Positions 2,576 to 28,232 of a stretch of DNA of 64,000 bases are shown one piece after another. The stretch is from Clostridia bacterium (GTDB taxonomy: Bacteria > Bacillota > Clostridia > Peptostreptococcales > Anaerovoracaceae): NCBI GenBank assembly GCA_900754795.1, contig CAAEEA010000081.1, positions 6,314 through 70,313 on the forward strand. The letters run 5' to 3'. The notes under the pieces were generated by a model. It was not told where the DNA came from, ran no database searches, and saw nothing but the letters and a program-made list of their open reading frames with translations. The position numbers were made by a program, and so were the translations under genes. Every line of letters begins with the position of its first letter. Positions within the stretch are counted from its first letter, which is position 1.

Positions 2576-2966
2576 CCGATCCTCCTTTCGTTTGTGTTGA
2601 TTCTGAATTTTGATACAATCATTCACATTCCACCTTTCGATTTTTATGTAATCAAGGCGAGAGAGCAAAACAAAAAGACCCGCACCTACATGGGTACGGA
2701 AACACAAACAGGCGAACAAAATTGTTCGCTTAAAATGTTCCGTGCCGATGTATGTACGAGTCTATAACTCTGAATGGATGATCGTTGTCTTTCAAACGAA
2801 AGGATGACAGTAGTAACTGTCGTGGCACATATTATTCAATTTTCAGCCAATCTCTCGGTGCCCTTATTATACCATACGCAGGAAACTTTTGTCAAGGCAG
2901 GGTGAATAGTTTAGCTTTTAGTAGATATAATTCTTGCTTTACTAATCTTTTCATCTCTAAAACATA

Positions 2967-3007
2967 GAAACAAATGCTCCCCACTTTGAATGGGGAGCAT
3001 TTGTTTC
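2967..3007 (-). terminator. Intrinsic terminator hairpin just downstream of the helicase stop.
   Basis: Perfect 17-bp stem GAAACAAATGCTCCCCA / TGGGGAGCATTTGTTTC with a 7-nt loop, 4 nt after the TAA at 3012-3014. Confidence 0.75.
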
Positions 3008-3011
3008 TTAG

Positions 3012-6000
3012 TTAGAATGGTAACGAAACAGAAAGCTCATCTTCCTCTAGTGTTTCAACTGTTCCTACAAATTGTTGCAAGAATTCAATTGCTAATTTTC
3101 TGTCGAGCAAATCGTGAATCTTTTGATTTTCGTAACTACGCAAGCAGTTATAGCACGACGGTTCGCAATTACATTCACTCATCGATCTCAACGCCGACAT
3201 GAAGATGCTATGCAGCATTTTTCCGTCCTTGGTTACCAATCTTCTTGAGTGACCAGCACCGCCGGGAACGGAGTCGTAAATAACGATAGAGAAATTTAAA
3301 ATTCCATTAATGAGTTTGGCTGATAAGCACGCCTTAATATCTCGTCTTTCAATATTCAGATCTTTTGCCATCGCATTCAAGATCGCATACATTACCGACA
3401 CCATTGTATTATAGTCGGATGTGTTGCACTTGAAGGATATTTTAGCAACATCGGTTTTGAATTCATGATGGAGAGAGCGACGAACAAGTTCATGACAATT
3501 ACAGTTATACTGTCCATACAAGCTTTCGTGTGATTTTGTCGTCGTTACGGACAGTGCTCCACTACGCATCTGCTTTTCAATTTCTCTTTCGCCAATACCT
3601 TCATCTTCTGCTACTGCATAACCGCAGAGAGGACAAACATAGAAATTGCTAACAGATTTAACCATCAAGGAATCATTCGTTGTAGATTCGACCTGGATTT
3701 CTATTGAATTAAACAGATACTTATGCTTATCTATCGTTCTTGCAGCAACATTCCCAATGTAATAGTCTTCTGAACGATAATTTTTCTCCTGACGAGTCAT
3801 AGGTACATCTCGATCTTGTCGTTCGGCAACAAATCCCGAGCGCGGTTCTATACTTTCGTAGAAATCCATTTTGAACAGTTTTCTACCACAAGCCGAACAA
3901 GGGATGCCCTCACTTGTTATAGGCGTGATGCTGTAATTTACAGTATTGCAATCCTTATTTCGGCACACTCCAATATATCCCGTGTACCAGTCCTGCTTAT
4001 CTTTGCCTGTTGCGGATTTCTTGATGTAACGACTCGTATATAGTCTGCCGTCAGCGACAACCTCCGAGGAAGGCGCGTATTCAGCTATTGCAATCTGCAG
4101 ATCTCTGCTCAACCTCAACTTAGAAACATTGTTTGCAGTTGTATTTTGCTGTAGCTCAACAGTATTAACGGGGAAACCGTATCTCGGCAGTATATTTCCA
4201 CGAGCCAAGAAATCAATCAGCTTGTTTTTCTTGTAATGCTGAAGCTTTCTTTCGCACATAGCGGCTTTTGCCAAATCGTTTTCCCTCTTGAATTGCTTAA
4301 TTAACTTTTCAAAGTTTTTGATATTGTTCTCATATTCCTGAATCAATTGTGTGAACACCCCTTCGGGGCCGCTGAATTCTTCAATCCAAGAGAAATCATC
4401 AATACCGAGACGCTTATGCAAATTATCAAGATCTGGGATGGATGCCTTCAGCATATCTAAAAGTCTTTGAGGATGGCTATTGATCCACTCAATAAAGCCC
4501 TCGTATCCCTTTAGATTTATAAATTTATCGGCATCGTTATGATTGTATTGATCCTCGTGATCAGCAAAATATATGCTCAAAGCAACCGCATAGATATGTC
4601 TGCGAACAATCTTCTCGTTATCCACCTTAAAGAGCGGAGGAAGTATCGTTCCACCTATCATTCGCTTGGGATCTTTGAAGAATGCTAAGTCGTGAGAACT
4701 TAACTTTGCAAATGTAAGCACAAACGCTGCTGCATCAAGGCTACGACCTGCACGTCCGGCACGCTGTGCGTAGTTGGACGGCAGAGGAGGAACATCTCGC
4801 AAAAATACGGTTTCAAGGTCTCCAACGTCCACACCCATTTCGAAGGTGGTAGAGCAAGAAAGCGCATTGATTTCCTTCTTGATAAACTGCTCCTGATATT
4901 CTGCGCTCTCTTTTTTACTGAGCTGTGCTGTATGCTCTTTGATGAGCAATGGCGACATTCTATCGCTCATATACAGCTTTGCAAAGTGGTTATCTCTCGT
5001 AATATCATCGGGCGAGATCCGGGCGAGCTTTCCTTCGCATCTGACAGAAGGACAATGACCTAAATTGAACTGTGTGATCTTACCGCATTTCTTACAACGA
5101 TACCAATGTGCATTAGGAGAGCCGTTGATCTTTACGACAAAATGCTTTGCTCGAAGCACATAAGTTCCGTCTTTATTCAGATCATCCATACAATACGGAT
5201 TATCGCATTCAGGATCGGAAAGATACTCAAAGTACTGCGTTAAAAATTCTATCGCACGATCTTCGGATATACCAAGTGTGGAGCAAACATAATACAGACG
5301 ATTGGATTTATAGTATCCGTTTCCATTGCTCTTGCTTTTAGGCATCCAATTTGATACCGTTGCTCTCTTTCTTTCGGGTGATTGCATGAAAGCAACGAAT
5401 CTCTGCGACGGAGTAAAGAATATGTATTCTCGGTCATTATCATCAATATCACTATCGGAGTCTGTGTATATTGCTCCCATTTTAACGATTTCGAAGATTA
5501 ACAAATCGAGCAATGCCTTTACCGAAACAGGATCGGCATTATACAACTCCGCAATGCTTTCAACAATTTCCGGCGTATTACCTTTATACTCGAATTGTAT
5601 TTGACCTAACGCAGTAAGCGAGGTGGTAGAGTTATATCGAGCCAATTCGTTGAGAAGTGCAACCCAAGCGTTCTTACGACTATCAAGTGTAAGATTGCTT
5701 TCATCCGAATTACTCTTTGCAAAGCTTTTCTTTGCTGTGAAGTAATTAGTAAGCAAGGTAACAAAATCGGATATCGTATATTCATGGGATACGATTTCGT
5801 CTTTTCTTTCCGCAATGATGCGACAGATGCCACGTCTACGCAAGAATTCGTTATAGCTCTTACCTAAATAACACGCAAACTTAGCTGCTTCTTGTCTACT
5901 ATCGGAGAAAGCCAAGAACTGTCTGCCGGTCTTTCTTGCGACCTTTTTGTTTGCAGTTGCCGCCCTTGCGAAAATGTTTTTAGCTTTGGTTTGGTCTTCG

Positions 6001-7862
6001 CTTTCAACATATTCGATTTCGGGAAGCTCTTCATACAAAGAGGTTGCCAAAACAGCCGTTGCTGCATCATTACCAAGATATAACCTCTTATAATGACCAG
6101 TGTGACAGTTTCCGCATCTCGCTCCTATTTTGAGGATTTTCGCCTTAATGACCTTGATATAGTTTTCCTTGCCGCAATCGCAAGGCAGATTATGAATCTC
6201 ATTTTCGGCAACGATTGCTCCGCAGATCGGGCAGAGATAGAACACTTCTTTCTTTCCGTCGGTTTCGTCCTCAATGTCATCATCTTCAATATCGGCATTA
6301 TCATCGGCATCGAGATAGTAATATTCGACTTCTTCCTCGAGCTTGCTTGCCTGAACCAATCTACGACTTTCAATTTTGCCGACCAGTGCAATTCTTCCGC
6401 AATCATCACAAACGGCTGCTTCAAATACAGCAGATTCCTTGCCGTTCTCCCAATAGGTTCTTTGGCGGTTCAAGAACAACCGCTTATCTCCATTCAGAGT
6501 AATATAACAACCTTCGAGGCTACGGATAAAGAAGTGATACCTTGCATCAATCAAGGATTTTTTGTTCTTTTGTGCGCGAGTGCAAAGCGAAATGAACGCA
6601 ATTGCACCATCCATGTTAACAGATAACTTTTCACCGATCTCAGACAACTCGCAAATACCGCCAAGGCGGAGGCGCAATGCATGGTATAGATCAGAGGTCA
6701 GCAAGAAATCATACAGAAGCTCTTTTTCGTCAGTTGCTTTATCAACATTAAATCCGTAATCATTCAGAACCTGCCACACAAAATTTTCGCCATCCGCTAA
6801 CTTTTCATATAACTCGTTTGGATATTTTTTTATCGTGGCATTAGGAACATACGGCTCTCGTTCGGCTCTGATAATATACTTCTTGTCAAAGCTTACACCA
6901 CAGAGGTTTTCTGCAAATGTGATAATATCATCGTCTACGCTGCTATCACTACCCAAAGTAGCACTCGTTAGGATAAAGCGTGTATCCTTGGTAGCCGAAA
7001 TTCTTGCTTTTAATCTACGAAGAAGGATCGAAGTTTCGATACCTGTTGCTCCTGTGTAAATATGTGCTTCGTCCAAAACAACAAATCTAAAATCCGCATT
7101 TGAGAAAAGCACATCATCCTTCGGACGCAACAGCAAATGTTCGAGCATCGCATAGTTGGTAAACAAGATGTTCGGAGGATTCTTCTTCATCTCGTCACGA
7201 GATAGAATTTCGTTAGGCAATCTGTGGCGAAGCTCAGGCACTTTTTCTTTTGCGAACATAGCTTCATATACGGCAATAGCACTTTCTTCATCATTTTCTG
7301 TGCCGCCATTATATGCGCCGAAGGTTATATCAGGATAGCACATCAAGATCTCCCTGATATTCTTCATTTGGTCGTTTGCGAGAGCATTCATCGGATAAAT
7401 GAATAATGCACGAACACCTTTGCCGAGCGTACCTTGCTCCTTTTCTCGTAACAGTTCATTTAATACGGGAATTAAGAAGCAGTTCGTTTTACCACTACCT
7501 GTACCGGTAGAAACAACTGCGTTATTTCCACCAACGATAGCACGAATTGCTTTTTCCTGATGCAGATACAAGTTACGAGTTATCGGAAGTTTGTGCTTAT
7601 GTAACTTATCGTTCGGCTTGCCTGCTTCAAGCTCTCTGAACAGCGGAGAAAGAGGACAATCTGCATCCTCAATCATTTCTTCGATTGATTTGCCGCTCTT
7701 AAATACATCTTTAATTTCAAGCAATGGGCCGCGAGCAATATTCGCCCTTAACTCTTTTACAAACTGCTCTTGTAAAGAAGGATTCGCAAACGCATGCGTT
7801 GTCGCTATGTAGTCTATAAATTCTTCTTTTATGTTTGATGATGCTTTAGCCGGATTGAACAT
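3012..7862 (-). CDS. 1616-aa SF2 DEAH-box helicase with Zn-ribbon insertions and a C-terminal DUF1998/MrfA-type Zn-binding domain (COG1205-like; DruE-like).
   Basis: Motif I STGTGSGKT (7485-7511), motif II DEAH (7062-7073), motif III TSAT, motif IV-like FLAFSDSRQ, motif V TFEMGVDVG, motif VI QRAGRAGR (4743-4766). The C-terminus has GGAGHSRRL and CNCEPSCYNC...YENQ..H..LDR (3144-3173). RBS GAGGAGGTG; the ATG lies 1 nt after the upstream stop. Confidence 0.9.
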   Translation of the reverse strand: MFNPAKASSNIKEEFIDYIATTHAFANPSLQEQFVKELRANIARGPLLEIKDVFKSGKSIEEMIEDADCPLSPLFRELEAGKPNDKLHKHKLPITRNLYLHQEKAIRAIVGGNNAVVSTGTGSGKTNCFLIPVLNELLREKEQGTLGKGVRALFIYPMNALANDQMKNIREILMCYPDITFGAYNGGTENDEESAIAVYEAMFAKEKVPELRHRLPNEILSRDEMKKNPPNILFTNYAMLEHLLLRPKDDVLFSNADFRFVVLDEAHIYTGATGIETSILLRRLKARISATKDTRFILTSATLGSDSSVDDDIITFAENLCGVSFDKKYIIRAEREPYVPNATIKKYPNELYEKLADGENFVWQVLNDYGFNVDKATDEKELLYDFLLTSDLYHALRLRLGGICELSEIGEKLSVNMDGAIAFISLCTRAQKNKKSLIDARYHFFIRSLEGCYITLNGDKRLFLNRQRTYWENGKESAVFEAAVCDDCGRIALVGKIESRRLVQASKLEEEVEYYYLDADDNADIEDDDIEDETDGKKEVFYLCPICGAIVAENEIHNLPCDCGKENYIKVIKAKILKIGARCGNCHTGHYKRLYLGNDAATAVLATSLYEELPEIEYVESEDQTKAKNIFARAATANKKVARKTGRQFLAFSDSRQEAAKFACYLGKSYNEFLRRRGICRIIAERKDEIVSHEYTISDFVTLLTNYFTAKKSFAKSNSDESNLTLDSRKNAWVALLNELARYNSTTSLTALGQIQFEYKGNTPEIVESIAELYNADPVSVKALLDLLIFEIVKMGAIYTDSDSDIDDNDREYIFFTPSQRFVAFMQSPERKRATVSNWMPKSKSNGNGYYKSNRLYYVCSTLGISEDRAIEFLTQYFEYLSDPECDNPYCMDDLNKDGTYVLRAKHFVVKINGSPNAHWYRCKKCGKITQFNLGHCPSVRCEGKLARISPDDITRDNHFAKLYMSDRMSPLLIKEHTAQLSKKESAEYQEQFIKKEINALSCSTTFEMGVDVGDLETVFLRDVPPLPSNYAQRAGRAGRSLDAAAFVLTFAKLSSHDLAFFKDPKRMIGGTILPPLFKVDNEKIVRRHIYAVALSIYFADHEDQYNHNDADKFINLKGYEGFIEWINSHPQRLLDMLKASIPDLDNLHKRLGIDDFSWIEEFSGPEGVFTQLIQEYENNIKNFEKLIKQFKRENDLAKAAMCERKLQHYKKNKLIDFLARGNILPRYGFPVNTVELQQNTTANNVSKLRLSRDLQIAIAEYAPSSEVVADGRLYTSRYIKKSATGKDKQDWYTGYIGVCRNKDCNTVNYSITPITSEGIPCSACGRKLFKMDFYESIEPRSGFVAERQDRDVPMTRQEKNYRSEDYYIGNVAARTIDKHKYLFNSIEIQVESTTNDSLMVKSVSNFYVCPLCGYAVAEDEGIGEREIEKQMRSGALSVTTTKSHESLYGQYNCNCHELVRRSLHHEFKTDVAKISFKCNTSDYNTMVSVMYAILNAMAKDLNIERRDIKACLSAKLINGILNFSIVIYDSVPGGAGHSRRLVTKDGKMLHSIFMSALRSMSECNCEPSCYNCLRSYENQKIHDLLDRKLAIEFLQQFVGTVETLEEDELSVSLPF

Positions 7863-7863
7863 T

Positions 7864-10620
7864 CTATTTCACCTCCTCGGTGCTAAAGAGGAAATAATCA
7901 ATTCCTCTCGTATTTCTATTAAAATTGCTAATTCTGTTTTTGGTGTCAAGAGTGAATTCACCTAAGAAGTCGTCCATATCGTCGGGATTAACACCGGCAA
8001 CGATGAAACAAGAATTTTCGCTCCTGAGTTCGAGCCTTATTGGATTGATATCATCGTATGTTCCTTCGCTGTTTGCCATGGTGTTCAAATAGGTTTTCCA
8101 ACCATCACGATTGATAATATAGGCACTTCCAGTATAATAATGACAGCCGTCAAACTCTCCTATATACCAAAGGTGATCCACATAGAAGGGCTTGATTTCC
8201 TCATACGAAGCCTTGCCTGTTAGCATTACCTTTTCAAAGCGCAGACTTTTGCCCTTGAAGCGAATCTTGTTGATATCGCCAAACACCACTTGTTGCTCGA
8301 ATAAGCGGAGAGGCTTTTCGATAAATCCAACTCGCTTCATCAAATCAACGGTAACATCATAAATACCTATTTCAAGCTCAGCTAATGAGAAGTATCTACT
8401 CTTATAGTTTTCATCGATGGTTTCGCTGACGTCGAAGCTATGCTTTACTGTATCATTCTCACAGAAAGAGATTCTGAATTTTGGCGTGGAATCGCCAACA
8501 AAAGATTTGCCCACATCCCACAGCATCTCTTTTCCGCTTATTACAAAAGGCGAGAATTTGAGTTTTTCCTTCAAGCAAACTGTTAAGATAGGAATAACAG
8601 CGATATCCTCAACTTTTACGAATACGATAATTTCATTCCTACCATCTTGCAGCATAGACCAGAGAGTTTCGCCAAGCTTAAATGAATTGAATGCTGCGCT
8701 GTCGGACAAAACAGTGTTGTTATCCAAGAACACTTGGTATCCCATTTCTGTAGGCAAATCAATAATAAGCTCTGCTGAATTGGAATAATTCCTATACCAC
8801 AAATCCTCTCCGTACTGCGATGAAAATTCGCTATCGCCAAATTTCCATCTTAACACGGGCGGAGAAAGAACGATATCGCCATCATCAAACGGAATCACAG
8901 CATTGCCTTGGTTGATATCAAACGATATGATTTTATCGTATTTTTCCGTATGGAAGCGCACTGTACCAATGTTTTCCTTATCAAAATACAGCTTTTTATC
9001 GTAGGTAATGCTTATGCTGTTAAACTTTACAACATTGTAGGACGTTTCAATTTTGTTATCCGCATAGCTGAAAATATTGATTTTCTGCGGTTCGCACACA
9101 TTGAGCAGTTCCGTGATGAAAAAGGTTTTATATCCTTCGCTTTCTTCGCAAGTGAACGCACTCAGTTTAAAGTCGGTAGATTCATAACGTACGCCGTATT
9201 TAGATATATCAATATCCGACTTTACGACAACTTGCAAATCACCATCGATGACGATAAATTCCTCGCCGTCGTGTATAAACTTTGTATTATTCTTTCGATC
9301 TGCGGTAATTCTTATGTTGCGTTTCTGTTTTTCAACTACGAAGAAAACCGTTCGCTTCGAACTTTGTAACAGTTCACCCTCTTGTGCCTGAAGAATATAC
9401 AAATTTGGTTCACCTGAAACTTTTTTTATACTTTCGGGATGTGCCGAGAACTCCTCTAATTTAGGCGCGAACAATATGTAGTTTCCGGGAAGACATTCCT
9501 CTTGCAGGATTTCCCTATGATCTCTAAAGACAACATACTCTCGAAACAAGCTTGTCTTTGAGTTGTAAATGACATCTCCGCAATGCACGATCTCCAAGAT
9601 GCAATCTATTATGCCATCCTCAAAAACGAGATTGTCTGCGAACAAAGACAGTTCCTTTGTTGCCATGGTAAGACCCGAACCGAATGTGTACATTTCTCTT
9701 TGGTCAACAAGCTCTCCGTTACGATAAATATTCAGAAGAGGCATATCGTAAAAATTGTTTTTCAGACGAATACTTGGTATTGTCAAAATAGCTTGTTTGC
9801 CGTTATAGCTATATTTAGGCCGAATCGTTGAGTAATCGGTTATTGCTCGTTCATATGATTTTCTCTTGGGTTTGGCAACGCCAAAGCTTTTTTCTTTTTC
9901 CGTCCACCAATCACGAACAAGGATATTATAATATCGGTCGTTATCAAGGATTTCTCCACCAAACACCCTGTCCAACAAGGAGATTGTGCCTTCGATATAC
10001 TTGACCATTTCTTCCGGACTGTCGATTGCCATTCGCTTGATTCCGGCACGCAAAAAATATACGCCACTACCAAGCTTGAGGTCATCCTCCAAAGATTTCT
10101 CATAAGAGAAGGTTCTCTTAAGCTCCTCAGCAACGAGAGCAAATGTGTCATCGTTCTTCGTATATGTAAAATTCATATCCTCGGAATACAGATTCCAACA
10201 CAATTCCAAAAAGGATTCCGTAGAGTTGAGCGGAGCGAATGCGTGCGCTAAAATAGTGGCGTAATAGCGTTTCGTACAACCTGACAAATACATGATTTTG
10301 CCACGTTTTCCGAGCCTGTCAATTACACTCGTGAGATATGTATATATTTTCTGTGAGCCATACGAGCCGATCAACTTTTTATAGATACAATCCCAAAAGG
10401 TATCCTCTTCTGACTTCCAAGTTTTTACGGCATTCACCATAGCAACAAAGACGAGTTCATCATATCCTTGCGATATGCTGTTCCCCCAACCGCCATCATA
10501 GTTGCGAAGCAAGCAGCCTGTAAAGTCATATACACGCGCTAATTCCTCGTCGGAAAACACATAGTTACCGACAAAAGTTTCATTCATTGCTTCGCTTATC
10601 TTTGGTAACAACTCTTTCAC
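7864..10620 (-). CDS. 918-aa protein of unknown function, translationally coupled to the helicase (possible DruH-like partner).
   Basis: Long uninterrupted ORF with a GTG start preceded by TAGGAGGATCTC. Codon usage is as AT-rich as the helicase. I found no Walker A, HNH, PLD (HxK) or PD-(D/E)xK signature by eye. Confidence 0.8.
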   Translation of the reverse strand: MKELLPKISEAMNETFVGNYVFSDEELARVYDFTGCLLRNYDGGWGNSISQGYDELVFVAMVNAVKTWKSEEDTFWDCIYKKLIGSYGSQKIYTYLTSVIDRLGKRGKIMYLSGCTKRYYATILAHAFAPLNSTESFLELCWNLYSEDMNFTYTKNDDTFALVAEELKRTFSYEKSLEDDLKLGSGVYFLRAGIKRMAIDSPEEMVKYIEGTISLLDRVFGGEILDNDRYYNILVRDWWTEKEKSFGVAKPKRKSYERAITDYSTIRPKYSYNGKQAILTIPSIRLKNNFYDMPLLNIYRNGELVDQREMYTFGSGLTMATKELSLFADNLVFEDGIIDCILEIVHCGDVIYNSKTSLFREYVVFRDHREILQEECLPGNYILFAPKLEEFSAHPESIKKVSGEPNLYILQAQEGELLQSSKRTVFFVVEKQKRNIRITADRKNNTKFIHDGEEFIVIDGDLQVVVKSDIDISKYGVRYESTDFKLSAFTCEESEGYKTFFITELLNVCEPQKINIFSYADNKIETSYNVVKFNSISITYDKKLYFDKENIGTVRFHTEKYDKIISFDINQGNAVIPFDDGDIVLSPPVLRWKFGDSEFSSQYGEDLWYRNYSNSAELIIDLPTEMGYQVFLDNNTVLSDSAAFNSFKLGETLWSMLQDGRNEIIVFVKVEDIAVIPILTVCLKEKLKFSPFVISGKEMLWDVGKSFVGDSTPKFRISFCENDTVKHSFDVSETIDENYKSRYFSLAELEIGIYDVTVDLMKRVGFIEKPLRLFEQQVVFGDINKIRFKGKSLRFEKVMLTGKASYEEIKPFYVDHLWYIGEFDGCHYYTGSAYIINRDGWKTYLNTMANSEGTYDDINPIRLELRSENSCFIVAGVNPDDMDDFLGEFTLDTKNRISNFNRNTRGIDYFLFSTEEVK

Positions 10621-10642
10621 GAGATCCTCCTAATAATGATTG

Positions 10643-10828
10643 TTATTCTGCTGCGTTACCTTCTTTTATCCACGCATCGACCTCGGATATCTTAAACTTC
10701 CAAAGTCTACCGACCTTTGATGCAGGCATTTCACGCTTTGCAATCCAAGTTAGGACGGTATCACGACTGACTCCAAGATGCTCCATAATTTCTTTAAGAG
10801 AACACCATCTTTCTGCTTCGTTGTTCAT
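10643..10828 (-). CDS. Excisionase-family / MerR-like HTH DNA-binding protein (61 aa).
   Basis: Internal Met with RBS GAAGGAGGTTCGT-ATG. The sequence MNNEAERWCSLKEIMEHLGVSRDTVLTWIAKREMPASKVGRLWKFKISEVDAWIKEG follows the HTH_17/excisionase pattern (L..s..TV..wi....P..kvGr.w.f...e.d.W). Confidence 0.7.
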   Translation of the reverse strand: MNNEAERWCSLKEIMEHLGVSRDTVLTWIAKREMPASKVGRLWKFKISEVDAWIKEGNAAE

Positions 10829-10867
10829 ACGAACCTCCTTCGACATAAAGGTATAAAAATCTACTTT

Positions 10868-10896
10868 ATTATACAATATTTTTGGCGTTCTATCAA
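10868..10896 (-). promoter_or_regulatory. Sigma-A type promoter for the three-gene cassette.
   Basis: On the minus strand: TTGATA (10891-10896), 17-nt spacer, extended -10 TGTATAAT (10868-10875). It lies about 40 nt upstream of the HTH start. Confidence 0.65.
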
Positions 10897-10939
10897 TCTA
10901 TTACAGTTGTTTATTGTGGTTTTATAATGGTTAACAAGA

Positions 10940-10976
10940 AAAGATCCATCACAGATTCTATCCGTGATGGATCTTT
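10940..10976 (-). terminator. Intrinsic terminator, probably ending the upstream core operon, at the island/core junction.
   Basis: Perfect 13-bp stem AAAGATCCATCAC / GTGATGGATCTTT with an 11-nt loop, followed on the minus strand by TCTTGTT. Confidence 0.6.
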
Positions 10977-11072
10977 ATTATCCTATTCGGTTTTTGGTTT
11001 TCTTCGTTAAGGACATCCCGCTTTGGGACCGGTTCTTTTTTAATCTCTGTTCCAATATTCGGTCTGGAAACG

Positions 11073-12083
11073 CTATATCCTGCCTGCTCTGGCTGCTTCT
11101 TCCACAGATACCGCTACGGCCACCGTCGCGCCTACCATAGGGTTGTTACCCATTCCCACATAGCCCATCATCGCCACATGAGCAGGAACTGACGAAGATC
11201 CGGCAAACTGGGCGTCTGAATGCATTCTTCCCATGGTATCAGTCATACCGTAAGAAGCAGGCCCCGCGGCCATATTGTCCGGATGGAGAGTTCTGCCGGT
11301 GCCTCCGCCGGAAGCGACGGAAAAATATTTTTTGCCTTTTTCCCAGCATTCCTTTTTATATGTGCCGGCTACGGGATGCTGGAATCTTGTAGGGTTGGTC
11401 GAATTGCCGGTAATGGAGACATCTACGTCTTCAAGGTGCATAACAGCTACGCCTTCGCGGACATCATCTACTCCGTAGCAGCGCACCTGAGCTCTCTCTC
11501 CTTTTGAATAAGGTATTTCTCTGACAACGCTTATCTGCCCGCTGTGGTAATCAAAGCTTGTCTGAACATAAGTAAAGCCGTTTATCCTGGAGATTATCTG
11601 AGCCGCGTCTTTTCCCAGCCCGTTGAGAATCACTCTGAGAGGAGTTTTGCGTACTTTGTTCGCGGATCTTGCAATGCCGATAGCGCCTTCAGCCGCGGCA
11701 AAAGATTCGTGTCCCGCGAGAAAAGCAAAGCACTTTGTCTCATCTCTAAGCAGCATGGCCGCAAGATTGCCGTGTCCTATACCGACCTTTCTGTCCGCTG
11801 CCACAGATCCATCCAGGCAAAAGGCCTGCAATCCTTCACCTATGGCTTCGGCGGCGTCCGCCGCGGTGCGGCAGCCTTTTCTGATCGCTATGGCTGCTCC
11901 TGCTACGTAAGCGTAGCGTACGTCTTCAAAGCATATGGGCTGTATGTTTTTTGCGGTCTCATAAGGGTCGATTCCCGCTTTTTCACAGATTTCCCGCGCG
12001 TCCATGAGGTCTTTTATCCCGTATTTGCCGAGGACGGACAGGATATTGCCGATTTTTCTTTCGTAGTTTTCAAAGGTTATCAT
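11073..12083 (-). CDS. GGGtGRT family protein.
   Basis: Literal GGGTGRT motif (11289-11309) within SVASGGGTGRTLHPDN. RBS GGAGGACAGAG-ATG. Confidence 0.8.
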   Translation of the reverse strand: MITFENYERKIGNILSVLGKYGIKDLMDAREICEKAGIDPYETAKNIQPICFEDVRYAYVAGAAIAIRKGCRTAADAAEAIGEGLQAFCLDGSVAADRKVGIGHGNLAAMLLRDETKCFAFLAGHESFAAAEGAIGIARSANKVRKTPLRVILNGLGKDAAQIISRINGFTYVQTSFDYHSGQISVVREIPYSKGERAQVRCYGVDDVREGVAVMHLEDVDVSITGNSTNPTRFQHPVAGTYKKECWEKGKKYFSVASGGGTGRTLHPDNMAAGPASYGMTDTMGRMHSDAQFAGSSSVPAHVAMMGYVGMGNNPMVGATVAVAVSVEEAARAGRI

Positions 12084-12093
12084 CTCTGTCCTC

Positions 12094-12786
12094 CTATTCT
12101 CTTCTCGGGTCTATCGTTTTGACTGCTTCGCTGAAACGGCCGTATTCTCCGCGGGCTTTTTCGATTGCTTCCGCCGGGTCAGCGCCGTCTTTGATCGCGT
12201 CCATCATCTTGCCGATATTCACATACTGATAGCCGATGATGTTATTATCCTCATCGAGAGCCATTTTGGTTATATACCCCTCTGTAAGATCGAGATATCT
12301 GGCTCCTTTGGCTTTGGTTGAATATATCGTGCCTATCTGGCTCCTCGATCCCTTTCCCAGATCTTCCATGCCGGCGCCTACAGCCAGTCCTCCTTCAGAA
12401 AACGCGGACTGGCTCCGTCCGTAAACTATCTGCAGGAAAAGCTCTCTCATGGCCGTATTGATAGCGTCGCACACGAGGTCGGTATTCAGAGCTTCGAGCA
12501 GAGTCTTTCCCGTCAGTATTTCCCCGGCCATAGCCGCCGAGTGGGTCATGCCGGAACAGCCTATCGTCTCGACAAGCGCTTCTTCTATGATTCCGTCTTT
12601 AACGTTGAGAGTAAGCTTGCACGCGCCCTGCTGCGGAGCGCACCAACCGACGCCGTGTGTAAGCCCGGAGATATCTTTGATCTCTTTTACCTGCGTCCAT
12701 TTTCCCTCCTGAGGGATCGGAGCCGGTCCGTGATACGCGCCCTTGTTAACAGGGCACATATTTTCGATTTCTTTGGTATATATCAT
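12094..12786 (-). CDS. NifU/IscU-like iron-sulfur cluster scaffold domain protein.
   Basis: GVGWCAPQQGACKLTLNVKDGIIEEALVETIGCSGMTHSAAMAGE resembles the NifU N-terminal domain. It is paired with the GGGtGRT gene. Confidence 0.65.
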   Translation of the reverse strand: MIYTKEIENMCPVNKGAYHGPAPIPQEGKWTQVKEIKDISGLTHGVGWCAPQQGACKLTLNVKDGIIEEALVETIGCSGMTHSAAMAGEILTGKTLLEALNTDLVCDAINTAMRELFLQIVYGRSQSAFSEGGLAVGAGMEDLGKGSRSQIGTIYSTKAKGARYLDLTEGYITKMALDEDNNIIGYQYVNIGKMMDAIKDGADPAEAIEKARGEYGRFSEAVKTIDPRRE

Positions 12787-17857: not shown

Positions 17858-18586
17858 TCAGCCGAGTTTTTTTATTTCCTTTTGCAGTCTTGATATTATG
17901 CGCTTTTCAAGGCGCGATATGTATGACTGGGATATTCCCATTCTGTCGGCGACTTCTTTCTGAGTCATTTCCCGTCCGTTCCTGAGTCCAAACCTCATTT
18001 CCATAAGTTCTTTTTCTCTCGGCTCCAGTTTCTTCATGGCGCCGTACAGCAGTTTGCGGTTAACTTCGTCTTCAAGTCTGTGATACACCACGTCGCTGTC
18101 GGTACCGAGTATATCCGAGAGAAGGAGCTCATTGCCGTCCCAGTCGACGTTGAGAGGCTCATCAAGGCTGACCTCGCTTTTAAGCCTGGCTGTCCTGCGC
18201 AGATGCATCAGTATTTCGTTTTCGATGCACCGTGAAGCATAGGTGGCCAGCTTTATGTTTTTTTCCGGTTTAAAAGTATTGACGGCTTTGATCAGTCCTA
18301 TCGTGCCTATAGATATCAGATCCTCAACATTGACTCCGGCGTTTTCAAATTTCTTTGAAATGTACACGACAAGGCGAAGATTACGCTCTATGAGTATGGC
18401 CCTCGCCTCTTTGCTCCCTCCCGCGTATTCTTTTAACAGTTCCGCTTCTTCCCCTCGTGTGAGCGGAGGCGGCAGAACATCGTTTCCTCCTATGTAAAAA
18501 AGAGTTCCGGCTCTTAATGCCTCTTTTATCTTCCATATCAGTCTAAGGCTTTCCCCAAGGCCTCTTGCCATCAGCTCTTTATACAT
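17858..18586 (-). CDS. sigE: Sporulation sigma factor SigE (pro-sigma-E).
   Basis: Pro-sequence followed by [17 protein letters not shown]; sigma-70 regions; directly follows spoIIGA. Confidence 0.9.
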
Positions 18587-19395
18587 TACGAAAAAAGTCC
18601 CCTTTCTAAAAAATCTCTGTTCAAAAGTACCTCGAAATCTCTGAAATCACCGCGGTAAAACGCTACGCAGGCATTCTCCACAGATATGCCTTCAAATACC
18701 ACTCTGTCTGTTCTGATTCCCTCAAGGCTGCCCTTATCTGTACCTACCGCCCGGTAAGGTATGACTCTGTATCTTGACGGCAGATCTTTCGCGCGGAAAG
18801 GCAGCCTGCCGGCTCCCCTCTCATCTATGAGAATCACAGGACTGCCGCTGAGCGGTTCTCTCAGGCTGTTTCCCGAATCCACAAAGGCGCTGAAATAATA
18901 GCTCTTGCCTTCGATCACAAGGCGCGCCTGTCCTCTGACAGCCATATCGCTTCCGCGCTTTCTGATCAGTCTTACAAACCAGTACGTTATGCCAAAAGCG
19001 ACCGCCGCCGCGCACATGAGCCATGAATAAGTAACCGCGTCCATGTATATCGTCCCCTGATGAGTAACAGCAGGCTGCTCTTTCCACAGAGTCACGGCCA
19101 TCACGATTCCGCCGGACAGAAAAGTCAGTACAAGAAACAGTGTTCCTGTTATGACGATATTCTTTCGGCCAAAGGCGACCGCCGCGCACACGGCCGCGGC
19201 GCAAATCCTGACGATTGCCGAAAGAGGCCAGTCAATCGGTACAAATATCAGAAACGCTTCAGCCCCGCATATCGCCGCTGCCGCCGCCAGCCTGAGCTTA
19301 ACCGGAGTCTTTCCTGTAAGCCTGCCTGTAAGGGTGAGCAGAATCAGTCCGACTATGAAATTTTCAAGGAAAAGATATTCACCGTAGATGACCAT
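18586..19395 (-). CDS. spoIIGA: Sigma-E processing peptidase SpoIIGA.
   Basis: Five N-terminal TM spans and the aspartic protease motif FVDSGNSL. I chose the start at [13 protein letters not shown] (RBS GGAG 7 nt upstream); the track start at 19455 is possible. Confidence 0.85.
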
Positions 19396-19517
19396 AACGC
19401 GCTCCATCCCATCCGTATGACAATGATACACCTGCGGTCTCGTGAAATTTGTCAAAGGCTGTCGCCCGCAAAAAATAAAAAACCGGCAGAAATCAATCTG
19501 CCGGAAAACATGCCGGT

Positions 19518-19877
19518 TTATTTAGACGCGGCTTTTTTAGCTGTCTCGCAGAGAGCCGCGAATCCCGCCTCGTCGTGGATAGCCATCTCTGAAAGCATCT
19601 TGCGGTTGATCTGGATACCCGCCTTCTTCAGACCGTCCATCAGTCTGCTGTAACTGAGCCCGTTCATTCTCGCGCCTGCGTTTATACGGGCAATCCACAT
19701 CTGTCTGTACTGTCTCTTTTTAAGTTTTCTGCCTACATACGCAGATCTGAGAGCTCTCATAACGGCCGGGTTAGCCGCTCTGAATACTTTGCTCTTTGCT
19801 CCGTAGAAACCCTTAGCCTGTTTTAATATTTTTTTATGTCTCTTATGGGCGTTAACGCCTTTTTTTACTCTTGCCAT
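19518..19877 (-). CDS. rplT: 50S ribosomal protein L20.
   Basis: [29 protein letters not shown]... is the canonical L20 sequence. Confidence 0.95.
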
Positions 19878-28156: not shown

Positions 28157-28232
28157 GCGCCAGTAGCTCAGGGGATAGAGTAGCACACTCCGAATGTGAA
28201 GGCCGCGGGTTCGATTCCCGCCTGGCGCACCA
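28157..28232 (+). tRNA. tRNA-Arg (anticodon CCG), with encoded CCA.
   Basis: Hand-folded cloverleaf: acceptor GCGCCAG/CTGGCGC, D arm GCTC..GAGT, anticodon loop CTCCGAA (CCG at 28190-28192), T arm GCGGG-TTCGATT-CCCGC, then ACCA. Confidence 0.85.

Follow-up and report, generated by a model that had tools for sequence, protein, structure and literature searches.

We examined 64,000 nucleotides of a Clostridia bacterium genome (assembly GCA_900754795.1, contig CAAEEA010000081.1), hereafter the window. The focus was a 918-codon open reading frame (ORF) and the large helicase gene immediately downstream. We refer to the product of the 918-codon ORF as the partner. Our analysis indicates that the two genes probably encode a compact Druantia-like anti-phage system, with the partner as its accessory subunit. 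In this system it would take the position of DruH, alongside a DruE with no nuclease. Coordinates are listed in Table 1.

The original prediction, made from the DNA letters, described the 918-codon ORF without giving its strand, which is minus. It also held that the ORF is uninterrupted with a strong ribosome binding site (RBS), that its stop codon is 1 nt from the helicase ATG and that the helicase RBS is embedded in its last codons. Inspection of the locus bore this out. Homologues have methionine at the position equivalent to the GTG start (consensus MxELxxKIxEAM) and so we take this start to be correct; no in-frame ATG occurs before codon 12. Read along the minus strand, the junction between the genes is ...GAG GAG GTG AAA TAG A ATG TTC.... 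The partner stop codon (TAG, 7866-7864) and the helicase start codon (ATG, 7862-7860) are separated by a single base (7863). The two genes are thus predicted to be translationally coupled. Stoichiometric co-expression, and a stable physical complex of the two proteins, would be plausible outcomes.

Table 1. Features of the two-gene operon and its surroundings in window coordinates
Feature	Position	Strand	Comment
Partner coding sequence (918 aa, GTG start, TAG stop)	7864..10620	minus	Uninterrupted ORF; family unannotated anywhere
Partner RBS, AGGAGG	10626..10631	minus	5-nt spacer to GTG start at 10620-10618
Partner N-terminal all-alpha domain, residues 1-245	9886..10620	minus	AlphaFold2 model; best-conserved part of the protein
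Partner all-beta region, residues 269-918	7867..9816	minus	AlphaFold2 model; fastest-evolving part
Helicase RBS, GAGGAGGTG	7870..7878	minus	Within the last four sense codons of the partner ORF (E-E-V-K-stop)
DruE-type helicase coding sequence (YprA family, superfamily 2 (SF2)), 1616 aa	3012..7862	minus	PADLOC, Pfam, motifs
Intrinsic-terminator-like hairpin, strong	2966..3008	minus	20-bp stem; 4 nt past the helicase stop
Promoter-like site, TTGATA-17-TATAAT (11/12)	10868..10896	minus	Upstream of the operon; consensus match only
Terminator of the preceding GGGtGRT gene	10976-10940		Upstream of the operon's promoter-like site
GGGtGRT gene	11073-12083		Flanking housekeeping gene; GC 0.45-0.52
NifU-like gene	12094-12786		Flanking housekeeping gene; GC 0.45-0.52
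143-aa HTH_36 / DnaD_N-like gene	2288-2719	minus	Just downstream of the DruE terminator
Promoter-like site of the 143-aa gene	2895-2866	minus	Perfect 12/12 sigma-70-type match
tRNA-Arg (CCG)	28157-28232	plus	Sole tRNA in the window; ~17 kb from the operon

The helicase and its partner

The helicase contains a Walker A motif (GTGSGKT), a DEAH box, the sequence QRAGRAGR and several CxxC zinc modules. Pfam assigns DEAD, Helicase_C and MZB/DUF1998 domains, the last at residues 1491-1574. The Druantia signature, a large protein rich in zinc modules with an SF2 DExH core and MZB/DUF1998, is therefore present. Among PADLOC models, the best matches are DruE1 (1.7e-170) and DruE3 (3.9e-167), with DruE2 and DruE4 at 1e-107 to 1e-122. 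The best sequence match in the Protein Data Bank (PDB) is 9tu7, a 2108-aa helicase (1.5e-83). Across the helicase and MZB/Zn-module regions, identity to E. coli type III-A DruE (2104 aa) is 26-28%. For both DruE and DruH, the E. coli reference sequences were those of ATCC 8739. The window helicase ends ~40 aa past MZB, and its alignment to the DruE3 profile extends no further than position 1687/2055. Using Pfam and alignment to E. coli DruE, we found no PLD or Vsr nuclease domain at the C-terminus. Judged by its sequence, the 1616-aa protein is a DruE without the tandem PLD nuclease found in type III-A DruE, which has 2000-2100 aa. Such nuclease-less proteins are known from a 'type III-B/III-like' branch (10.1101/2025.09.15.676423).

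The partner is acidic (net charge -32) and belongs to no family that we could recognise. A PADLOC scan gave zero matches even at E<=10, DruH models included, while Pfam and NCBIfam scans gave zero at E<=1. Searching PDB sequences with a profile of the partner family returned two chance-level matches (E ~0.5) and nothing else. Regular expression scans found no Walker A, DEAD/DEAH, HxK(x)4D or CxxC motif, and the 13 cysteines are scattered. No DEDD-type motif is present. There is also no transmembrane span; the most hydrophobic 19-mer (residues 664-682, Kyte-Doolittle (KD) score 2.17) is a confidently modelled beta hairpin. These results agree with the original prediction, which had listed Walker A, DEAD/DEAH and HxK(x)4D motifs, Cys clusters and membrane spans as missing.

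We obtained an AlphaFold2 model of the partner from a 37-sequence alignment (mean pLDDT 86.7). Helices are confined to residues 1-245 and the region from 269 to 918 consists almost only of strands. Hence, the earlier description of a helical first ~250 aa followed by beta-sandwich modules was accurate. The beta region comprises ~6-7 modules resembling immunoglobulin (Ig) or fibronectin type III (FN3) domains, with boundaries estimated from the DSSP string only. Residues conserved across the family are G18, K66, W68, T122, H126, P130, S133 and D157 in the N domain. In the beta region they are P282, R285, S354, R360, F365, E370, P588, G709, Y754 and G781. Foldseek searches against PDB and BFVD retrieved generic Ig/FN3 arrays only (TM ~0.1). 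With no confident match in PADLOC, Pfam, NCBIfam, PDB or Foldseek, the protein keeps the orphan status first given to it. A secreted or surface Ig protein was ruled out because there is no signal peptide or transmembrane span, and because the gene is coupled to that of a cytoplasmic helicase.

The partner family and its genomic contexts

Full-length homologues of the partner form 149 clusters at 90% identity, and 546 representatives cover the family at 50% identity. A chance ORF is ruled out by these hundreds of full-length homologues. We scanned 185,579 genomes, one per species, with two short peptide patterns. This confirmed 33 loci, a lower bound, nearly all in gut Bacillota and one in a spirochaete. 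A 99% match was found in 'uncultured Clostridiales UMGS1037'. Members of the family occur commonly in Clostridia, Erysipelotrichaceae and Christensenellaceae from the guts of humans and animals. Four of the 33 loci are cut by contig ends and were left out of the neighbour count. Of the remaining 29, 27 are followed directly by a DruE-like gene (1602-1738 aa for complete copies). The other two have DrmA-DrmB-NERD/UvrD directly upstream and no DruE-like gene downstream. In all metagenomic contexts examined, down to ~20% partner identity, a YprA-type helicase adjoins the partner gene. The gene pair is kept from 99% to ~20% partner identity and usually overlaps by 8 nt in relatives. We conclude that the association of the family with YprA-type helicases is strict and ancient. 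The partnership with the helicase, as first proposed, is supported by this consistent adjacency to COG1205/YprA-type genes, seen in every evaluable locus and in the metagenomic contexts, and by the lack of a contrary family match.

The partner diverges faster than its helicase. For example, identities for partner and helicase were 37% and 66%, or 71% and 93.5%, respectively. Divergence is faster in the beta part than in the N domain. This parallels the published asymmetry between DruH and DruE, where positive selection was reported in the Ig-like domains (PMC13192584).

These data bear on whether the partner is immune at all. The YprA family includes the repair enzymes MrfA and SftH, and SftH can substitute for DruE in M. 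smegmatis (PMC13316683). The neighbours of the window operon are housekeeping genes. An alternative is that the partner assists a YprA/MrfA-like helicase in housekeeping DNA repair. However, the window helicase matches MrfA/YprA at 3.5e-17 only, against ~1e-170 for DruE models. The distribution is patchy, with at least 33 confirmed species genomes in the pattern-based scan. Locus GC is low and the partner evolves fast. Furthermore, loci of relatives adjoin type I restriction-modification (R-M), HpaII R-M and Mokosh systems, and one copy is on an IMG/VR contig. We therefore regard a repair role as very improbable. MrfA-MrfB (YprA-YprB) does resemble the window pair in that a YprA-family 3'-5' helicase has a single dedicated partner. 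MrfB, however, is a small 3'-5' exonuclease of the DnaQ type. The window partner has no exonuclease domain; it is large and Ig-rich, evolves fast and has a patchy distribution. An MrfB-like exonuclease was ruled out by the lack of any Pfam or NCBIfam match and of a DEDD-type motif.

Fused domains occur in 16 of 39 distant family members. There are seven with N-terminal RNA polymerase (RNAP) alpha-CTD repeats, five with C-terminal UvrD, three with N-terminal HU and one with a DUF3427/type-IV-restriction-like domain. The nature of these modules points to a family that acts on DNA. Members P0177, P0213, P0256 and P0145 (loci L007, L009 and L010) have an N-terminal HU, 1-3 alpha-CTD repeats or a DUF3427/type-IV-restriction-like domain. 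For these four, a DruE-like helicase follows wherever the contig is long enough.

The family also occurs with DrmA and DrmB, the split YprA-type helicase and DUF1998 protein that form the DISARM core. Three loci (L031:3206-12739, L032:1192-10725 and L045:1206-10739) contain an operon of DrmA, DrmB, a NERD/UvrD helicase and a family member that shares 36% identity with the window protein. No methyltransferase or DrmC is encoded, and the operon looks like an unclassified DISARM-like system. L045 is the IMG/VR contig, and the L032 operon adjoins a Mokosh MkoA-like gene. In L008:2046-13625, a member with C-terminal UvrD (P0217, 1606 aa) is followed by DrmA, DrmB and a NERD-UvrD helicase. This cluster lies directly after an HpaII restriction enzyme and C5 methyltransferase. 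We conclude that the partner family serves the YprA-type helicase core in both its fused (DruE) and split (DrmA+DrmB) forms. Unlike DISARM, the window has a fused DruE-type helicase and no equivalents of the methyltransferase, DrmC, DrmD or DrmE. PADLOC Drm models matched neither the window partner nor the L032 member that follows DrmA-DrmB-NERD. Hence, DrmE or another Drm protein was ruled out.

Other loci vary in their DruE-like gene. In a clade whose partner is 45% identical (L022, L024 and L026, at about 17892-19625), DruE is longer (1730-1738 aa) and directly followed by a NERD-helicase gene, which may be an added effector. On the C. butyricum megaplasmid pNPD4_2 (NZ_CP013238.1; L048:3783-11668), WP_071981758.1 is a 1069-aa 'hypothetical protein'. 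This is a distant family member (E 1.7e-32 to the family HMM) with an extra N-terminal region of ~190 aa. Its gene is upstream of, and overlaps by 4 nt, a gene for a 1559-aa DruE-like protein. A tblastn search of plasmids with the window partner found nothing at E<=1e-5 and missed this protein. In Firmicutes bacterium CAG:449 (L036:12771-17654), the DruE-like gene is split into three consecutive ORFs, probably a pseudogene or an assembly error.

Relationship to DruH

Druantia types are defined by the companions of DruE, namely DruABCD, DruMFG or DruH. In type III-A Druantia of E. coli and P. aeruginosa, druH directly precedes druE in the same orientation, and the two genes overlap or are coupled. 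The partner gene is placed likewise. Both DruH and the partner are large, acidic, devoid of classical motifs and faster-evolving than DruE. The partner has 918 aa and DruH about 1100-1160 aa. According to AlphaFold2 and Foldseek, each protein begins with a helical domain and continues into an Ig-like array. Our AlphaFold2 model of E. coli DruH is helical from 1 to 247, beta from 260 to 831 and helical again from 842 to 1119. It agrees with two of three published cryo-EM descriptions. The third gives alpha-helical ends, a mixed alpha/beta core and three Ig-like domains. Foldseek with the DruH model also returned generic Ig arrays, an outcome that has been published (10.64898/2026.05.13.724313). 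PDB entries 4wrm_A, 6grs_B and 7som_D, as well as complement C5 structures, were common to the partner and DruH lists. The Foldseek library (April 2026) had no DruH structure, as the search with the DruH model itself returned none. Hence, Foldseek neither confirms nor excludes homology.

Could the partner be a highly diverged but bona fide DruH (YjiT), and the locus an ordinary type III Druantia, that is III-B with nuclease-less DruE? Such type III-B systems have been described (10.1101/2025.09.15.676423, PMC13316683). Gene position, coupling to druE, and a helical domain of near-identical length (245 and 247 residues) ahead of an Ig-like array would all fit. Profile comparisons also bear on this. 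A 139-sequence family profile gave one weak co-linear match to DruH, in the N domain (20-134 against 34-143, score 27, E 0.0039). Adding two more divergent YjiT_N proteins improved the hhalign result (score 29.3, E 0.0017). These scores were reached by none of 150 column shuffles or 120 block shuffles of the DruH profile, which scored 13.2 +/- 2.4 (maximum 21.2) and 15.1 +/- 2.2 (maximum 23.1), respectively. A helical decoy scored 12.7. N-domain helices of the two proteins correspond one-to-one in order. Secondary structure agrees at 67% of positions in register, against 39-65% out of register. Co-linear motifs are Y-x-F-S-D-E-E-L in the window family and Y-R-C-S-D-x-E-F in DruH, and YYATILAHAFAP and YLxTLACEGGLP, respectively. 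Between real DruHs that are distant from each other, likewise, only the N-terminal 250-400 residues stay alignable. On balance, the head domain of the partner is probably, if only by a modest margin, a distant homologue of DruH YjiT_N; this is unproven.

Several results weigh against a Druantia-like assignment, and some of them also count against a diverged DruH. First, the partner matches none of the DruH-family models, which were the PADLOC DruH3 set, Pfam PF27201 (YjiT_N) and PF27205 (YjiT_2nd), and NCBIfam STY4851/ECs_5259. E. coli DruH (L006:26022-39380, named 'STY4851/ECs_5259 family protein' in RefSeq) matches ten PADLOC DruH3 models at 1e-20 to 0. Thirty-nine distant relatives of the partner match none. 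Since our local Pfam copy lacked YjiT_N, YjiT_2nd and YjiV_N, the Pfam negative for these rests on precomputed annotations. Neither YjiT_N nor YjiT_2nd, nor any other precomputed Pfam match, was present on any of the 120 relatives listed, yet both YjiT domains are annotated on E. coli DruH and on DruHs at 17-25% identity. Second, full-length profile-profile comparison with DruH was not significant. Neither were hhalign comparisons of the close-family alignment with DruH or between the two beta regions, nor cross-family hmmsearch. Third, the HHalign probability of the N-domain match is 9-15% only.

Fourth, residues essential to DruH are not conserved. Mutation of PaDruH R22, K28 or E64 abolishes defence. 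We equated these with EcDruH R29, R35 and E75, whose counterparts in the partner are a gap, V21 and K66; K is found at position 66 in 86% of the window family. This is a soft negative, as the Pa-to-Ec mapping was inferred from motif spacing in other DruHs and the underlying hhalign alignment is weak. Fifth, the C-terminal helical domain of DruH is absent and the partner ends in beta strands at 918. In E. coli DruH this domain (~280 residues) contacts the N domain and, together with Ig5, forms a site for single-stranded DNA (ssDNA) and ATP (R1031, H1062, R1064 and K1067; 10.64898/2026.05.12.722862). Sixth, the window operon has housekeeping neighbours (GGGtGRT and NifU-like) and no other defence genes. 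Finally, neither partner nor helicase has a recognisable nuclease, so the killing step is unexplained.

Against the rival, it also counts that the window DruE scores equally on DruE1 and DruE3 models, placing it outside the modelled type III clade. A diverged DruH is possible, therefore, but clearly the less likely reading. Given the model failures, the unconserved essential residues and the missing C-terminal pocket domain, we conclude that the partner falls outside the DruH/YjiT family in its current definition, whether or not the two share ancestry. A DruH hint in the original prediction thus held for position and outline and failed for family models. A protein search with the DruH alignment, aimed at actinobacterial type III-B DruH, added two sequences only, on contigs too short to show a helicase, and the only plasmid loci that tblastn retrieved with DruH were proteobacterial III-A.

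Mode of action and surroundings of the operon

In our best reading, the partner acts as sensor or DNA adaptor within a new subtype of compact Druantia-like defence. We infer the sensor or adaptor role from coupling to the helicase, the conserved head, the fast-evolving Ig array, fusions to DNA modules and the DruH literature. A function in defence, and contact between the two proteins, would follow the same logic. The best functional precedent is DruH-DruE of M. smegmatis (MSMEG_1253/1254; DruH 1132 aa, DruE 1667 aa), which is experimentally protective (PMC13316683). Like the window pair, it is a two-gene operon whose DruE ends at DUF1998 without a nuclease; the M. smegmatis genes overlap. Defence needs both proteins and blocks phage DNA circularisation and replication (PMC13316683). 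The systems differ in phylum (Actinomycetota against gut Bacillota). Compared by description, the M. smegmatis accessory protein is also longer and classed as DruH, whereas the window partner is unrecognised.

Briefly, the Ig-like array and/or N domain would recognise an infection cue. This might be a phage structural protein, or phage DNA that is branched or contains ssDNA. The partner would then recruit or license the co-translated helicase on a phage DNA intermediate. Unwinding or stripping of replication and packaging intermediates by the helicase would block phage DNA replication. The proposed block is modelled on the report of nuclease-less M. smegmatis DruH-DruE (PMC13316683). Both kinds of cue have been reported for DruH: late structural proteins (PMC13192584, PMC13316683) and ssDNA or forked DNA (10.64898/2026.05.12.722862, 10.64898/2026.05.13.724313). 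Direct binding of DruH to DruE is disputed (10.64898/2026.05.12.722862 versus 10.64898/2026.05.13.724313 and PMC13316683).

A different interpretation is that the partner is the effector, supplying the nuclease that the window DruE lacks and degrading ssDNA made by the helicase. The analogy would be with the 3'-5' exonuclease/nicking activity reported for DruH, or with MrfB and MrfA. Mg-dependent nuclease activity was reported for DruH in spite of its having no known nuclease fold (10.64898/2026.05.13.724313; PMC13192584), and in M. smegmatis DruH is toxic on its own (PMC13316683). Consistent with an active site, family-wide polar residues cluster in the N domain (K66, T122, H126, S133 and D157). 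More occur in the first beta modules (R285, S354, R360 and E370). However, we detected no nuclease motif or fold in the partner, and another report found no DruH nuclease activity (10.64898/2026.05.12.722862). Few conserved acidic residues are available for two-metal catalysis, D157 and E370 only. The bulk of the protein evolves fastest, which is typical of a sensor. In addition, some relatives add a NERD-UvrD gene or a fused DUF3427 module, suggesting that the main nuclease activity does not reside in the core. An effector role is thus unlikely. For the sensor or adaptor that we favour, the killing step could possibly involve a catalytic or binding site built from either of the two residue sets above. 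Non-nucleolytic helicase action and recruitment of host nucleases are also possible.

None of the libraries searched covers the partner family, whether PADLOC 2023, NCBIfam or Pfam with its new YjiT models. Nor is it described in the 2026 Druantia III studies or the 2025 YprA survey that we consulted. We conclude that the system is of a known kind, compact and Druantia-like with a nuclease-less DruE, and that the accessory family and its link to DrmAB-type systems are new. From the models alone, we would expect a DruE with an unrecognised partner to go undetected or unclassified in annotation pipelines. With 546 clusters at 50% identity, this may be a sizeable blind spot in defence annotation of gut Firmicutes. 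The 2026 DruH studies give conflicting answers on the accessory protein, casting it as a DNA binder, a nuclease or a protein sensor. The dual helicase use and the HU, alpha-CTD, UvrD and DUF3427 fusions are natural experiments on this role. With no C-terminal ssDNA/ATP pocket and no helicase nuclease, the window pair may be a minimal system that shows which functions are essential. More speculatively, the family could be an independent, modular set of 'helical head plus Ig-array' adaptors. These would connect phage sensing to any YprA-type defence helicase and bridge Druantia and DISARM, with a minimal form that has no dedicated nuclease. We hold this idea tentatively and think it doubtful. 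If true, it would define an unclassified class bridging Druantia and DISARM that is abundant in gut Firmicutes. Its minimal two-gene form would stop phage by helicase-driven DNA disruption or through a new catalytic site (K66/H126/D157 or R360/E370).

The hairpin downstream of the helicase gene marks the end of the two-gene operon; its T-rich tail barely satisfies the 5-of-8 T rule of our scan. Promoter-like sites in the region do not exceed the number expected from shuffled sequence. GC content of the operon is ~0.40 (0.39-0.43 across 3001-11000) and that of the flanks 0.45-0.52, a difference that would fit horizontal acquisition. The 143-aa gene beyond the hairpin may be left over from the mobile element that delivered the operon. 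Given its distance, the tRNA-Arg gene is not an obvious integration site.

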